From: Escherichia phage vB_EcoM-UFV10
Sequence record: OP555981.1
Direction: 5' to 3' (one strand)
Length of the DNA stretch: 64,000 bases
A program made the translations under genes and the position numbers. The notes below the pieces were generated by a model that searched no databases, was not told where the DNA came from, and saw only the letters and a program-made list of their open reading frames with translations. Within the stretch, counting starts at the first letter, position 1, and the number at the start of each line of letters is the position of its first letter. Below, one piece after another: positions 2,448 through 64,000 of the stretch.

Positions 2448-4264
2448 TACTGGCTCATCCATTCTTTACGAAGGTCAGCATTATCTCCCATGAGCATTTC
2501 AAAAAGCTCTTTCCAATTCTCAGGAAGTTTAACAACATCATATACTGGGTTTTGAATCATCTCACGATATTCAGATTTTTCCAAAGAGCCAAGTCCTTTA
2601 ATATAACGGATGCTATGTTTAGGTAGAGCATCTTTGGCACTCTCATATTCAGCGACTGTATAAAACCATTCTTGTTTTTTACCGACCTGAGCGATGATTA
2701 CAGGAGTTTTGACAAAGCGAATTCGTCCTTGCTCAAACAATTCTGGCCAATTACTAAAAAATCCGAGCAGAGAAGGATAAATGCTTCCTAAACCATCATG
2801 GTCAGCATCGGTCATAATAGCAATATTATGATAATTCAAGTTTTCAGCTTTTTCACCAAGAACTAATCCAGTGATTGCGCAAATATCAAACAGTTCTTTG
2901 TTTTTAAGCATATCAGCATATGACATACCCCAGCTATTAAGAACTTTACCACGCAATGGATAACCACCGTGAAGTTCTTTATCACGAACATCAATAAGAT
3001 ATCCGATAGCAGAATCACCCTCAGTCAAGAAAAGAGTAGTGTCAGCATCTTTACCACAAAGATTCGCTTTGATATGTTTATGAACCTTAGCTTTAGAAGC
3101 CTTTTTAGCTGCTTTAGTTTCTGCTGCTTTTTCTGCCGCCAATTTACGAGCAAGGGCAGCTTCAATGATTGGCATTAAAATTGCTTCATTATTTAGAATA
3201 GCGCGTGAAATCTTTTTAGCATCAAGTTGAATATGACTACGAATTTCGCCAAATGGAGAAGTCAAACGCTCTTTAGTTTGAGAATCAAATCGCATGTTTT
3301 TCATATCACGGACAAACATAACGATAGTCAAACATTCTTTGACACGTGCTTTAGTCACATCAATTTTGAACTTACGTTTGATTTGTGGAATAAGGTCTTC
3401 ACAAATATCATCCATAACACAGTCAATGTGATGGCCACCATTCTTAGTGTGAATGTTATTCACATAAGTTAATTGACGAAATCCATCCGGTGAACGACCA
3501 ACAGCAATAGAACAATTTTCTTGTTCTTGAACAATAGCATGTTCATCATACTGTCGTGCATATTTCTTAAAATTGCCCTGAACCTTTTTACCATTAAAGG
3601 TAAATTGAATATCAGGATAAACAACAGCAAGTGTCTGGAGACGATCTAGTGTAATGTCAAGATAAACTTGGGACAGCTCATTAGTTTCAAATGACATAAA
3701 ATCTGGAATGAAAGTAACACGAGTTCCTTTCCATTTTCCAGGAATAGTTTCCCAGGATTTATTTTCCATGCCATTTGAACAACGAACTACAATATTATTT
3801 TGACCATCGCCAGTTTCACCGACAAACATCACAGAAAAAATGTTAGTTAAACTAGAACCAACACCATTCATACCACCGGTGACGCGTTCTTTATCATCAC
3901 CAAAGTTACCACCCGCTTTTGGAATAGTCCATGCAGCAACAGGACCAGGAATTTCTTCACCGGTAGGTGTTTTAACCATCGCTTGCGGAATACCGCGACC
4001 GTTATCTTCAACTGTCACCTGATTATTTTTAATGGTAACATTAATTTTATTCGCGAATTTAAACTTAGTACGAATACCTTCATCGACTGAGTTATCGATA
4101 ATTTCATCAATAAGCTTAACAAGACCAGGTACATACTGAACACTTTCCCATTTACCAAACAGAAAGCGCTCATGCATTTCATTAGCAGAAGAGCCAATGT
4201 ACATGCCACTACGCTTTTTGATATGTTCAATATCGCTCAGAATTTTAATTTCATTCTTAATCAT
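2447..4264 (-). CDS. 39: DNA topoisomerase II large subunit, GyrB-like ATPase, single fused 39+60 ORF
   Basis: 605 aa from ATG (track ORF begins one codon earlier at GTG); MIKNEIKILSDIEHIKKRSGMYIGS, GHKL and toprim-like regions; continuous ORF with no gene 60 or mobA. Confidence 0.9.
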   Translation of the reverse strand: MIKNEIKILSDIEHIKKRSGMYIGSSANEMHERFLFGKWESVQYVPGLVKLIDEIIDNSVDEGIRTKFKFANKINVTIKNNQVTVEDNGRGIPQAMVKTPTGEEIPGPVAAWTIPKAGGNFGDDKERVTGGMNGVGSSLTNIFSVMFVGETGDGQNNIVVRCSNGMENKSWETIPGKWKGTRVTFIPDFMSFETNELSQVYLDITLDRLQTLAVVYPDIQFTFNGKKVQGNFKKYARQYDEHAIVQEQENCSIAVGRSPDGFRQLTYVNNIHTKNGGHHIDCVMDDICEDLIPQIKRKFKIDVTKARVKECLTIVMFVRDMKNMRFDSQTKERLTSPFGEIRSHIQLDAKKISRAILNNEAILMPIIEAALARKLAAEKAAETKAAKKASKAKVHKHIKANLCGKDADTTLFLTEGDSAIGYLIDVRDKELHGGYPLRGKVLNSWGMSYADMLKNKELFDICAITGLVLGEKAENLNYHNIAIMTDADHDGLGSIYPSLLGFFSNWPELFEQGRIRFVKTPVIIAQVGKKQEWFYTVAEYESAKDALPKHSIRYIKGLGSLEKSEYREMIQNPVYDVVKLPENWKELFEMLMGDNADLRKEWMSQ

Positions 4265-60890: not shown

Positions 60891-61156
60891 TAGTATTTTT
60901 CCTCTGGTTGGAACACAGCACGACAAGCCCACATACTGGCTTCTTTGAGTTTCGTTTTAGCAATAGTTAACTGATCGAGGCTTTCGGCGTAATTCTTCGC
61001 GAGTTCATCATCTTCACAGCTATCAAATGCTTCCCAAAATTCATCGTATAAAGCATCAAAGATAAGTCCTAAACGAACTTCAGCGTCTTTAATAGCATTT
61101 ACTTTACCGATTTTTTCGTCGGTATGTGGCTTATAACCTTTAATATCTTCAATCAT
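60890..61156 (-). CDS. hypothetical protein
   Basis: 88 aa from internal ATG behind GAGGAA (track start is TTG). Confidence 0.4.
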
Positions 61157-61370
61157 ATTTGACTTCCTCACCAGTACATAAATCGTATTCAACTAAACGA
61201 ATAGGTTCATGAATGCCATATCCCTGAACAGAAATTTCTGTCGTAGGATAAATTCCATCAATATCACCCATATTCCAGGCTTCGTTAAATTGCTGTTCGC
61301 CTGAATTACTAAACCACTCGGCGAAAGCATTTAGCACATCTTTAGAACCTTCAATAATTATCTTTGCCAT
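61149..61370 (-). CDS. hypothetical protein
   Basis: 73-aa ORF. Confidence 0.4.
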   Translation of the reverse strand: MAKIIIEGSKDVLNAFAEWFSNSGEQQFNEAWNMGDIDGIYPTTEISVQGYGIHEPIRLVEYDLCTGEEVKYD

Positions 61371-61732
61371 TACAAACTCTCGGTAAAGGTACGAGCGATA
61401 ACGTCGCGCTGCTGTTCCGGAGTCAGAGAGTTAAAGCGAACTGCATAACCGGATACACGGATGGTCAGCTGCGGATATTTTTCCGGATGCTTAACTGCAT
61501 CTTCCAGAGTTTCACGACGCAGAACGTTAACGTTCAGGTGTTGACCACCTTCAATTTTAACTGTAGGCTGTTGCTCAATTTCAATTTCACGGGCATGCAA
61601 ACCGTAGAAAATTTCTGGGTCTACAAAAGAGTCCTCTTTAAAAGTTTTAGAGACAATAATTCGTGCTTGAATACCATCTTCAAAATAAATAGTACCTTTA
61701 TGCGTGCCTTCAAGAATTTGATATGCTTTCAT
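61370..61732 (-). CDS. autonomous glycyl radical cofactor (GrcA/YfiD-like spare-part protein)
   Basis: 120 aa; C-terminal [59 protein letters not shown] resembles E. coli GrcA; 3' half GC-rich. Confidence 0.75.
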
Positions 61733-61739
61733 ATAAACC

Positions 61740-62069
61740 TCAATTAGAAAATAAATTTATCCAAGATTGTTCTTTAATTAAAAATGGCTCAGAATCATAT
61801 GCCATTAAACTCTGCGTGATTAGTCCTTTAAAAGGTCCATCAATAAATTCCATGGTAAAATATGGAATTTTATTCATTAGCCGTGCGTTAGGAGCAGTAC
61901 ATAAAACTCTGCATCCTTTGAATACGCCTTTTTGTAATTTGTATTGCTTAGGATAAAATTCGCTCAAGACGTTGTTATTTGCCAAAATTTCAAAATGATT
62001 CACCAATTTATTTTTAATAGTTTTTGGCGAAAAATAAAGATATTCGAAAAGTTGCGTGTCTGTCATCAT
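61740..62069 (-). CDS. hypothetical protein coupled to upstream P-loop gene
   Basis: 109 aa from ATG overlapping upstream stop (ATGATGA). Confidence 0.4.
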
Positions 62070-62605
62070 TGCATTCCGATTATGAAAAACTGTGGACGAG
62101 TAATACCACCAATGCAACATTTAATATTACAGCAGCAGTGTACAGTTTCAATATGGACACTATAAATCTTATCCATATCAGGAGATTTGACAGGTTCATC
62201 AATTATATACAAAATTCGCGAAAGCGATAAACCTCTGAACTTGCTTCCTTTATTACCAATAAAACTGCGCACAGAATCAGCAAATAAACGAAAACGTATA
62301 TCATCATTAGAATAACGCGAAAATTCCTTTTTAATGTTATTTGAAGAAATTTTAGCGTAAGCTGAAGTATTAGAAAGAACAATAACTGTTCCGCCATCAT
62401 ACAACCAATTAGCGGCAAAATTAGTTACTGCAGTTGATTTACCGGATTGACGTCCACCATCTAGTCGAAGTGTGCAATACTGCTTAAGTAAGTCTTCAAA
62501 TGGTGGGATATAATCGTTTTTACAAATTTCTTCTACTCTAGCGTCAGAATGGTGTGTAAAAGCATTCATCAGGGATAGATAAGGACCAGTTAAAAATGTT
62601 CTCAT
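62066..62605 (-). CDS. small P-loop NTPase with Cys-rich C-terminus
   Basis: 179 aa from ATG MRTFLTG behind GAGAGAATAAA; Walker A GGRQSGKST, Walker B ILYIIDEP; tail HCCCNIKCC. Confidence 0.45.
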   Translation of the reverse strand: MRTFLTGPYLSLMNAFTHHSDARVEEICKNDYIPPFEDLLKQYCTLRLDGGRQSGKSTAVTNFAANWLYDGGTVIVLSNTSAYAKISSNNIKKEFSRYSNDDIRFRLFADSVRSFIGNKGSKFRGLSLSRILYIIDEPVKSPDMDKIYSVHIETVHCCCNIKCCIGGITRPQFFIIGMQ

Positions 62606-62758
62606 TTTATTCTCTCTAAATTTGGGCCATTCCATGGCGCATGAATTGTCCATTTCTGTATTTACCCATTACCGCACTTGGGCTCGACCTTATTACAGGT
62701 TGGCGGGAATCCCTCACAGAATCATGAGGTCCAGCTTGTTCCCATATTTCTTATTTGC

Positions 62759-63232
62759 TTATTTGAATGATTTAACGTACTGAATAGAACCTTTACTATT
62801 CACAAAGGCAATTTTACCATTTTTGTTATACATAGTAGCAGTACGTTGATAGCCATAAGTTTGTTTACCAGATTGATAACCAACTAATGCGAAATTATCT
62901 TCACCCATTTTATTCTGTTTAGCGCGAATGCGTTCATGACCATGTGCCATAAGAACCTTAGCATCACCAGTTGCAATGGACCGACGAGTTTTTTCATCTT
63001 CAACTGTATTAACAAAGTCGTCAAATGAATCAAATTTAGCATGAGATTTATTATACAGTTTTCCATCTACTGCATAATTATATCCTTGTACATCCATCTC
63101 AACTTCTGTACCATCATCTAATACCGCAGTAATTTTCTGTCCTTTTTTAAATTTCAAAAGATCAGTAAAAGATTCAGCAATAATTTGAGAATTAATAGCT
63201 GCTTCAGTAATAAATTCTTTATACGTTTTCAT
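62759..63232 (-). CDS. internal head protein with capsid targeting sequence
   Basis: 157 aa; N-terminus MKTYKEFITEA like the T4 IPII/IPIII CTS; adjacent to e. Confidence 0.65.
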   Translation of the reverse strand: MKTYKEFITEAAINSQIIAESFTDLLKFKKGQKITAVLDDGTEVEMDVQGYNYAVDGKLYNKSHAKFDSFDDFVNTVEDEKTRRSIATGDAKVLMAHGHERIRAKQNKMGEDNFALVGYQSGKQTYGYQRTATMYNKNGKIAFVNSKGSIQYVKSFK

Positions 63233-63248
63233 GTGTATCCTTTAATTT

Positions 63249-63566
63249 TTATTCTTTAGGGAAGTTTTTAGAATATGCATCATAAAGCTTATTTCCAATA
63301 CGGCGGAAAACTCTAGCCGCAAAACGATTTTCTGGGTTTTTAATCATGATTTGCATCATATAAGTACCCGCGTCAGAAAGAGCTTCTTCATAGTACCCGT
63401 TAATTTCTTTAAGAGTCCTACGTTTACCACCAGGACCATCAACAGTGATTTTCCATTTACCTGTAGAAGTGCGACTTGGCGGTTCAACTTGTTCAATCCA
63501 GATATAACCGCCTTCTACACGCTGTCCTGCAACAGATTCTGCAATAAATTCTTTATACGTTTTCAT
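63249..63566 (-). CDS. internal head protein with capsid targeting sequence
   Basis: 105 aa; N-terminus MKTYKEFIAES; basic; directly downstream of e. Confidence 0.65.
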   Translation of the reverse strand: MKTYKEFIAESVAGQRVEGGYIWIEQVEPPSRTSTGKWKITVDGPGGKRRTLKEINGYYEEALSDAGTYMMQIMIKNPENRFAARVFRRIGNKLYDAYSKNFPKE

Positions 63567-63603
63567 GTGTTTCCTTTAAATATTTTAATTAGTAACTGTG
63601 AAT

Positions 63604-63633
63604 ATACTATCACAGTTTTAGGAGAAAGTAAAC
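63604..63633 (-). promoter_or_regulatory. promoter for the internal protein gene
   Basis: minus strand GTTTAC-18bp-TAGTAT upstream of the 63566 start; approximate. Confidence 0.4.
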
Positions 63634-63637
63634 AACT

Positions 63638-64000
<363 letters not shown>

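Follow-up and report, generated by a model that had tools for sequence, protein, structure and literature searches.

Between the internal-protein genes and the open reading frame (ORF) vs.8, T4-like phages carry a short stretch of apparently non-coding DNA, and it can be asked whether this stretch is a spacer, the trace of a lost gene, a piece of coding sequence or an RNA. The question is raised here by a stretch of 64,000 nucleotides (nt) from Escherichia phage vB_EcoM-UFV10 (record OP555981.1), hereafter called the window. Its segment 62654-62758 has a G+C content of 45.7%, against 34.5% for the whole, which is above 98.4% of all 105-nt windows and thus in the top 1.6%. The original prediction, made from the letters alone, had correctly singled out this segment as unusually GC-rich. 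It had proposed that the segment and a pair of downstream proteins may be a replacement cassette, or a remnant in the place where T4 carries denV, with an embedded regulatory or RNA element. Our comparative analysis indicates that the segment is part of a covariation-supported, pseudoknotted RNA, and not a spacer, a denV scar or coding sequence. The embedded RNA is in fact better supported than had been proposed, as a fold with covariation recurs in unrelated phage families. The protein part of the observation is ordinary and already catalogued; the structured RNA is undescribed in the literature that we searched.

Predicted fold of the RNA element

The fold was read on the transcribed (minus) strand. 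All genes of the locus lie on this strand, which is the one read by early transcription in T4, and all window features given below belong to it. In its T4-like form the whole element spans 118 nt (62626..62743) and is conserved block by block, with insertions and deletions between blocks, in divergent T4-like phages. It begins with the 5' strand of helix P1 (GGGAA, 62739..62743), which pairs with UUCCC at 62705-62709. The 5' strand of the pseudoknot (CUG, 62732..62734) lies in the loop of P1 and pairs with CAG at 62656-62658. It is followed by hairpin P1a (CCUCA-UGAUUCUG-UGAGG, 62712..62729), which the original prediction had noticed as CCTCA...TGAGG and which is variable or absent in other phage groups. 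The core motif (62659..62709) is a three-way junction of P3, P2 and P4, inserted between the two pseudoknot strands. Here P3 pairs 62701-62704 with 62664-67, P2 is the hairpin ACCU-GUAAUA-AGGU (62687-62700), P4 is the mini-hairpin GCC-CAA-G(U)GC (62674-62683), and GGUAA+U (62668-62673) forms the invariant junction. The core matches our covariance model R1 with 69 bits (E = 4.5e-20), and this match is the sole copy in the window.

Across phage groups the core, of about 50 nt within a full element of 110-150 nt, follows a general scheme. P3 consists of the 3-5 nt just before ACCU, paired with nucleotides +2 to +6 past GGUAA; P2 reads NCCU-GURNNA-AGGN and is followed by a C(N)A linker; P4 is G-Y-C, a triloop and G-(bulge)-R-C; and the joining strand GGUAA is invariant. 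The unpaired junction bases GGUAA and C-A and the GURNNA loop of P2 are constant across phage families. P1 is present upstream of the core in every group, and its loop strand, after a C-A-A-G-like stretch, complements the region 3' of P3.

In T4-like phages the element is extended by an additional 3' part, in which there are two GGA-loop hairpins. One of them is GCC-AUGGAAU-GGC (62626..62638), which is specific to T4-like phages and belongs to a block, GCCAnGGAAyGGCCC, that is invariant among the T4-like relatives. The two GGA triplets (62631-62633 and 62649-62651) lie in hairpin loops 18 nt apart, just upstream of the Shine-Dalgarno (SD) sequence of vs.8; in a subset of T4-like relatives, termed type B, the first of these sites reads AUACAUGGAUGA. 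We take these sites to resemble the CsrA-binding consensus. Type-B relatives (loci L007, L010, L017 and others) also show GTTTAC-N17-AATTAT directly 3' of the core, within the 3' part. This string presumably resembles a T4 early promoter, which the version in the window (GTAAAT...) does not match.

Comparative evidence for the fold

The core alignment (A3), made with MAFFT, comprises 51 distinct sequences from several phage lineages and is unambiguous. The proposed helices are paired in 85.9% of cells, against 24-42% when the partners are slid by 1-3 columns, and the covariation score of 0.275 (0.093 in shuffled alignments) was reached by 0 of 500 shuffles. In P3, pair 7-45 is formed in 50 of 51 sequences with three pair types and pair 8-44 in all 51 with five. 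The closing pair of P2 is AU in 48 sequences, GC in 2 and CG in 1, and the middle pair of P4 is CG in 42 and UA in 9, with none unpaired. As the P3, P2-closing and P4-middle positions were N in the search patterns, this covariation was not imposed by retrieval. The G-U pairs found in P3 (UG 16, GU 14) are compatible with the transcribed strand only, and 20 of the 51 columns are invariant. RNAalifold recovered P2 on the core but proposed a GYC-GGU pairing in place of P4; P4 was retained in the model, since the C/U changes of column 28 are matched by the G/A changes of column 35 in 9 of 9 cases, in lineages with C-G in their close relatives.

The full structure, including P1 and the pseudoknot, was examined in an alignment of 12 type-B T4-like sequences, where 92.3% of cells are paired and again 0 of 500 shuffles reach the covariation score. 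Both pseudoknot pairs covary with no unpaired case (16-111: CG 8, AU 3, GC 1; 17-110: GC 8, CG 4), as do P1 pair 10-57 (GC 9, CG 2, AU 1) and the base of the inner hairpin of P1. Relatives form P1 as GGGAG/CUCCC, AAAGG/CCUUU, AAAGC/GCUUU or AAAGA/UCUUU, and in P1a, L052 has the compensatory strands CCUUA/UAAGG, while the loop is shorter in L021 and L055. In other groups the pseudoknot strands, identified by eye, read CCUGG/UCAGG, CUCGA/UCGAG, CCAG/CUGG, GUGAGGG/CCCUUAC, CGGA/UCCG, GGGUA/UACCC and GGGAG/CUCCC. Such compensatory changes back each of the variable helices and point to selection on the structure.

Distribution among phages

A sensitive BLAST search with the 181-nt segment matched 1034 phage records. 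A core of about 45 nt, with 89-95% identity, was found in unannotated DNA of the rV5-like phages FV3, Murica, naswa and slur16 and of Pseudomonas phage PsgM04F; in FV3 and PsgM04F it lies beside or inside a transfer RNA (tRNA) gene cluster, on the tRNA strand. Further instances came from pattern scans of viral contigs and metagenomes, followed by a degenerate pattern in which the stems were left free. The latter added a 360-kb contig of a jumbo phage, several uncultured groups, and the group of Klebsiella phage KpCHEMY26, Escherichia phage phiWec188 and Shigella phage SF1-1. With R1, every tested pattern match from phages and metagenomes reached 44-70 bits. Phage groups without detected similarity in their flanking DNA share the fold and an identical stretch of 18 nt.

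The features downstream of the motif differ between groups: vs.8, an internal-protein gene, tRNAs, a promoter or a terminator. In about 40 distinct T4-like sequences, 29-41 nt separate the end of the element from the start of vs.8; in L017 the gene that follows encodes an internal protein. Most non-T4 groups (rV5-like, KpCHEMY26-like, Pseudomonas, jumbo and several uncultured) have tRNAs on the same strand 17-600 nt away, a distance of 17-43 nt in L065, L067, L069 and L081; these tRNAs adjoin the motif without overlapping it. In L082 a promoter-like site, the motif and a 13-bp intrinsic terminator follow one another, and our reading of the sequence places terminators shortly downstream of the motif in L081 and L057 as well. 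An all-against-all BLASTP comparison of the ORFs around the motif revealed no protein family common to the neighbourhoods of different phage groups.

Some T4-like phages and one uncultured group carry tandem double copies, 30-60 nt apart (L035 5091-5252, L037 9019-9181, L062, and L075 828-963), and the second copies hold compensatory variants (GCCU/AGGC in P2, GUC/GAC in P4). In the KpCHEMY26/phiWec188-like group (L036 at about 2000-2330, L032, L054, L044) a long outer stem, GUGCUCUUAUCGUUGUGAC ... GUCACAAC..GGUAAGAGCAU, encloses the motif, and its 5' strand resembles a boxA antitermination sequence. As the same outer-stem sequence opens another unit about 100 nt downstream, arrays of cassette-like RNAs may be suggested.

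Absence from known RNA families and from bacterial genomes

Scanned with covariance models, as had been suggested with the original prediction, the segment is matched by R1 and by no known family. None of the 4227 models of Rfam 15 matched the element at E <= 10, also with the 181-nt query, and this includes the riboswitch, ribozyme, ROOL, GOLLD, tRNA and transfer-messenger RNA (tmRNA) models; nor did Rfam match at the motif in FV3, PsgM04F and eight other loci. ARAGORN found 0 tRNA or tmRNA genes in 61000-64000. A full-text literature search (vs.8, RNAs of tRNA clusters, small RNAs of T4 and the core strings) yielded no description of the motif, and the core strings occur in none of 8 million papers.

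The element shows no similarity to E. coli genomes, and its 20-mer has no exact match in 185,579 bacterial and archaeal genomes. The degenerate pattern gave 41 matches in these genomes, which by our estimate is near chance expectation, and only 1 of them exceeded 40 bits. This sole convincing copy (L100 1312-1362, minus strand; 43.8 bits) lies on the 1.06-Mb "plasmid unnamed1" of Pseudomonas serbica IT-P366; it forms a P1 (CAGC/GCUG) and a pseudoknot (CCGAA/UUCGG) of its own, and the 8-kb locus holds no tRNA. With one real match among 185,579 genomes, the family appears to be essentially phage-specific. A type III antitoxin (ToxI, the abiF motif) would be expected as repeats beside a toxin gene in bacterial genomes; the lack of an exact 20-mer there, and a single true match from the degenerate scan, do not fit this.

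We also considered T4 rnaC and rnaD as a second copy of the element, which was rejected as no likeness was seen by eye and R1 has no match in the T4 tRNA region. Resemblances to the GUAAUA loop of 23S ribosomal RNA (rRNA), the 530-loop of 16S rRNA (GCGGUAAU), the twister ribozyme, the thiamine pyrophosphate (TPP) aptamer and complementarity to the T-arm were dropped as too short or inconsistent.

Coding potential and the annotation of T4 vs.8

About 135 nt of this "intergenic" DNA are almost identical in T4, where they start directly after the stop codon of denV (alignment with T4 and PP01). The T4 record reads them as an N-terminal extension of vs.8 by 40 amino acids (aa), giving 219 aa (NC_000866 64253-64912, complement; 3254-3913 in L002), an annotation that can be traced to the 1986 entry X04567. 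In T4 an 8-bp tandem duplication (CTTATAGAG twice) fuses an ORF of the 33-aa type to vs.8. This duplication is absent from the window and from PP01, and the 219-aa frame of T4 is open only because of it. Full-length homologues all start at, or have a Met at, the position aligned with MRTFLT/MK-FLT, and the only sequence of the vs.8 alignment with an N-terminal extension has one unrelated to that of T4. Some called vs.8 proteins have 194-196 aa; the 195-aa version (P0001) counts 1051 member sequences.

The original prediction had seen no ORF in the segment. Two frames do lie on the RNA in the window (62606..62717), a 33-aa ORF with a GTG start (62616-62717) and, from the ATG at 62653, an extension of vs.8 by 16 aa in frame, but neither is conserved in relatives. 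The UFV09 record (L003) places on the RNA element a 33-aa "hypothetical protein" coding sequence (CDS; 3084-3185) and an over-long start of vs.8 (3166-3735), both of which are probably spurious. Among 40 distinct T4-like sequences the spacing from the block GCCAnGGAAyGGCCC to the ATG of vs.8 falls in phase 0, 1 and 2 in 16, 11 and 13 cases, respectively, so that the block is not kept as codons. Stop codons occur in all three frames in nearly every T4-like sequence, and frames and stops differ among relatives. Thus, although the T4 records, the 195-aa versions given by gene callers and the CDS of UFV09 speak for a coding role, either as a T4-style extension (219 aa) or as a small upstream peptide, we give it very little credence: the substitutions are compensatory in helices and do not fall at third codon positions. 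By comparison with relatives, the conserved protein is the 179-aa form, and the T4 record mis-annotates as coding what is predicted to be an RNA.

Still less credence can be given to a neutral leftover, whether as the trace of a lost denV, as part of a mobile element or as a normal promoter or terminator. Such an origin is suggested by the position of the locus at the border of the hyperplastic internal-protein/denV region, by the lack of denV in the window and by the early-promoter-like string of type-B relatives. However, T4 has both denV and the segment, which shows no similarity to denV; being present in T4 directly after the denV stop codon, the segment is not a scar of denV loss, and the idea of a denV remnant has to be abandoned. 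Nor is it an ordinary promoter or terminator: on both strands of 62600-62760 no terminator-like site was found, and promoter-like sites do not exceed chance level. Together with the 18-nt identity, the fold shared across groups that lack flanking similarity and the compensatory changes, these comparative data already contradict a neutral origin.

The Vs.8 and Vs.7 proteins

The 179-aa P-loop protein and its 109-aa partner, both present as originally described, are encoded by homologues of vs.8 (62066..62605; PHROG 1488, E = 7.3e-79, residues 3-179) and vs.7 (61740..62069; PHROG 2049, E = 2.8e-54), annotated as such in PP01 and AR1. Vs.8 of the window aligns, nearly identical, with residues 41-219 of T4 Vs.8, and Vs.7 is 98% identical to that of T4. 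The vs.8 gene has about 96% DNA identity to vs.8 of PP01, and both genes 96-98% to PP01, AR1 and T4-type phages. They lie between the denV/internal-protein genes and vs.6 on the minus strand, in the same order in T4, PP01 and UFV09. In a search of 5.8 billion proteins, the source-named homologues all came from T4-like phages. By homology, the P-loop pair is thus the catalogued T4 ORFs vs.8 and vs.7, conserved and of unknown function. Since both are conserved ORFs of the T4 vs region, the proposal of a replacement cassette fails the test that had been set for it; T4 has denV as well as vs.8 and vs.7, so nothing was swapped in and the window phage merely lacks denV.

The TGA stop codon of vs.8 (62066-62068) overlaps the ATG of vs.7 within ATGATGA, which confirms the coupling noted earlier, and vs.7 is the translationally coupled partner of vs.8. 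An SD-like GAGAG (62612..62616) precedes the ATG of vs.8 by 6 nt; it lies in an A-rich stretch outside every helix of the model, and in relatives an analogous AGGA/GAGA precedes the start of vs.8.

Vs.8 contains the motifs GGRQSGKST (Walker A), ILYIIDEP (Walker B) and HCCCNIKCC. Walker A, Walker B, R113 and R124 are invariant among its homologues, and the Cys-rich tail varies, i.e. shows no conservation. From sequence and model, Vs.8 is predicted to be a small single-domain P-loop nucleoside triphosphatase (NTPase) of the RecA-like/ASCE (additional strand catalytic E) type. Its AlphaFold2 model is a single alpha/beta domain (predicted local distance difference test, pLDDT, 79), and the closest folds in the PDB, with a template modelling (TM) score of about 0.45, are helicase, RecD and terminase ATPase domains. 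A weak match to phrog_2 (terminase large subunit) covers the P-loop region (residues 45-142, E = 1.8e-6), whereas Pfam Terminase_6N scored 14.3 bits, below its cutoff of 22, and searches of Pfam, NCBIfam, PADLOC and PDB sequences gave sub-threshold P-loop matches only (Pfam 14-17 bits), including those to AAA and terminase families. Vs.8 thus shares with the ATPase domains of terminases and of superfamily 1 and 2 (SF1/SF2) helicases the ASCE fold, a terminase-like Walker A RQxGK[ST] and a Walker B hhhhDE, but differs from these enzymes as a single domain of 179 aa with neither a nuclease nor a second RecA domain; the ribonuclease H-like nuclease domain of terminases was not found in it. Vs.7 matched no family of known function in PHROGs, NCBIfam, Pfam or PADLOC.

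Gene order and the denV region

The 2-kb stretch around the element is 100% identical to Escherichia phage vB_EcoM-UFV09 and three sister isolates and about 96% identical to PP01, AR1 and many further Tequatrovirus genomes; the window phage is T4-like. Upstream of the element lie an internal head protein gene of the ipIV type (62759-63232; Pfam DUF7412, E = 1.7e-95, and PP01 annotation), an internal-protein gene of the ip10 type (63249-63566) and the lysozyme gene e (from 63638 onward). Downstream of vs.7, on the same strand and after a gap of 8 nt, vs.6 (61370-61732) encodes an autonomous glycyl-radical cofactor like GrcA/YfiD (Pfam Gly_radical, E = 2.5e-18).

On the T4 map denV occupies the position of the ipIV-type gene, immediately upstream of the segment, and denV is indeed absent from the window (tblastn, best E = 3.8). 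The internal-protein genes of the window (62759-63566, minus strand) are of the ip10 and ipIV types, against ipII and ipIII in T4, and denV is missing; this makeup is that of the known hyperplastic ip region.

Comparison with known phage RNAs

In context, the closest analogues of the element are ROOL and GOLLD, phage and prophage RNAs of unknown function that lie near tRNA islands and form multimeric cages, many GOLLD RNAs exceeding 800 nt (PMC12286853). Like them, the element is phage-borne, is predicted to be structured with pseudoknots, typically lies beside tRNA genes and has no known function. Unlike them, it is far smaller, unrelated in sequence and without a match to their Rfam models; it also occurs in virulent phages of Gram-negative hosts and is nearly absent from bacterial genomes. 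The stable RNAs rnaC and rnaD of T4 (species 1 and 2) are likewise small phage RNAs of unknown function beside tRNA genes, but in T4 the new element is 6 kb away from them, between denV and vs.8. The abiF RNA motif (RF03085) was detected at 3624-3655 (minus strand) of L071, an uncultured phage, with 45.4 bits (gathering score 37), about 470 nt upstream of the new motif in a tRNA island; phage tRNA islands may thus also carry antitoxin-like RNAs.

The element resembles riboswitches in its multi-helix junction closed by a helix, its pseudoknot, its covarying stems with near-invariant unpaired bases and its occasional tandem copies. It differs from them in that no family matches, no expression platform was identified and no gene family consistently lies downstream. 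The order P1, pseudoknot strand, hairpin, P1', domain, second pseudoknot strand is the same as in hepatitis delta virus (HDV)-like ribozymes, although any H-type pseudoknot that contains an insertion has it too. Where HDV-like ribozymes have their catalytic C, the linker is variable (AAAUA, UUUACAU, CU, U), and the hairpin is variable or absent.

Possible functions

From the observed fold, its conservation and its distribution we infer, with a probability of roughly 0.55, that the element is a stable, independently folding non-coding RNA that acts through a conserved partner, vs.8 and vs.7 being ordinary genes. As its neighbours are tRNAs, promoters or terminators and share no protein family, it is better viewed as a self-contained RNA gene than as a gene-specific leader. 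The RNA would be transcribed within the transcript of its neighbours, which outside T4-like phages are mostly tRNAs, and in one case as a unit of its own. It would fold independently of its flanks and, beside tRNAs, could be released as a stable small RNA by ordinary tRNA or mRNA processing. The invariant surface of the junction could then bind the conserved partner, presumably a small molecule or a protein of host or phage origin. T4-like phages would simply have inherited the element at the boundary between denV or the internal-protein genes and vs.8, where it may additionally influence vs.8 expression.

Several points weigh against this proposal. The folding energy of single sequences is no better than that of shuffled ones (z about 0), and the evidence for the structure is thus comparative, not thermodynamic. 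As sequence patterns were used for retrieval, the search itself accounts for part of the apparent invariance of the core, and it missed divergent copies. Moreover, the sequences are phylogenetically related, and the shuffle statistics therefore overstate significance, although the many independent pair types argue against this objection. A role in trans is inferred from genomic context only, and in T4-like phages the element is nearly always immediately 5' of vs.8. Finally, more than 10,000 predicted phage RNAs have been catalogued in bulk (PMC10690425), and the motif might already be among them, unnamed.

The constant position before vs.8 would be explained if the element were a cis-acting leader of the vs.8-vs.7-vs.6 operon, i.e. 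a riboswitch-like or protein-binding 5' untranslated region controlling translation of vs.8 or read-through. The invariant unpaired junction bases are aptamer-like, tandem copies (L035, L037, L062) occur as in some riboswitches, and two GGA-loop hairpins 18 nt apart precede the SD sequence. We nevertheless consider such a leader possible but unlikely. The SD sequence of vs.8 lies outside the model helices; the consensus scan showed no terminator-like site, and no dedicated search for SD-sequestering pairings was made. In L017 the element precedes an internal-protein gene instead of vs.8, and outside the T4-like phages what comes next is a tRNA, a promoter, another RNA-like unit or a terminator, and in no case a gene family that the groups share. 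More speculative, and decidedly unlikely in our view although compatible with the data, is a new class of phage small RNA that serves as a decoy or sponge, or a new class of self-cleaving ribozyme that processes phage transcripts. As a decoy, the RNA would be expressed with early genes or tRNAs, and its junction would capture a host factor that threatens phage translation, for which a tRNA-targeting nuclease, a toxin or a nucleotide immune signal can be proposed.

Self-cleavage has precedents, since hammerhead and HDV-like ribozymes cut beside phage tRNAs. The compact pseudoknotted fold with few invariant unpaired bases, its location beside tRNAs in several phages and a strand order that matches that of HDV-like ribozymes would all suit a self-cleaving ribozyme or RNA-processing element that cuts polycistronic early or tRNA transcripts. 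This function appears highly unlikely, however, as no ribozyme family of Rfam matches, the linker in the place of the HDV catalytic C varies in length and sequence, the hairpin equivalent to the HDV P3 is absent in the KpCHEMY26-like group, and no conserved candidate cleavage site could be identified.

Implications

T4 is among the most intensively studied viruses, and an overlooked RNA in its genome, if the proposed non-coding RNA is real, would add a class of genes to T4 and to the rV5-like, jumbo, Klebsiella and Pseudomonas phages that share it. Should the RNA instead be a decoy or a ribozyme of a new class, a functional RNA would have gone unnoticed in T4 beneath a mis-annotated coding sequence. 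Public records need revision, both for T4 vs.8, which is given as 219 aa in place of 179 aa, and for the spurious small CDSs of many deposited genomes. If our proposal is correct, the tRNA islands of virulent phages carry a recurrent RNA beside their tRNAs, in parallel to ROOL and GOLLD. The genetics of T4 would bring the function of this RNA within direct experimental reach, and the answer might help to explain the presence of tRNA islands in large phages.

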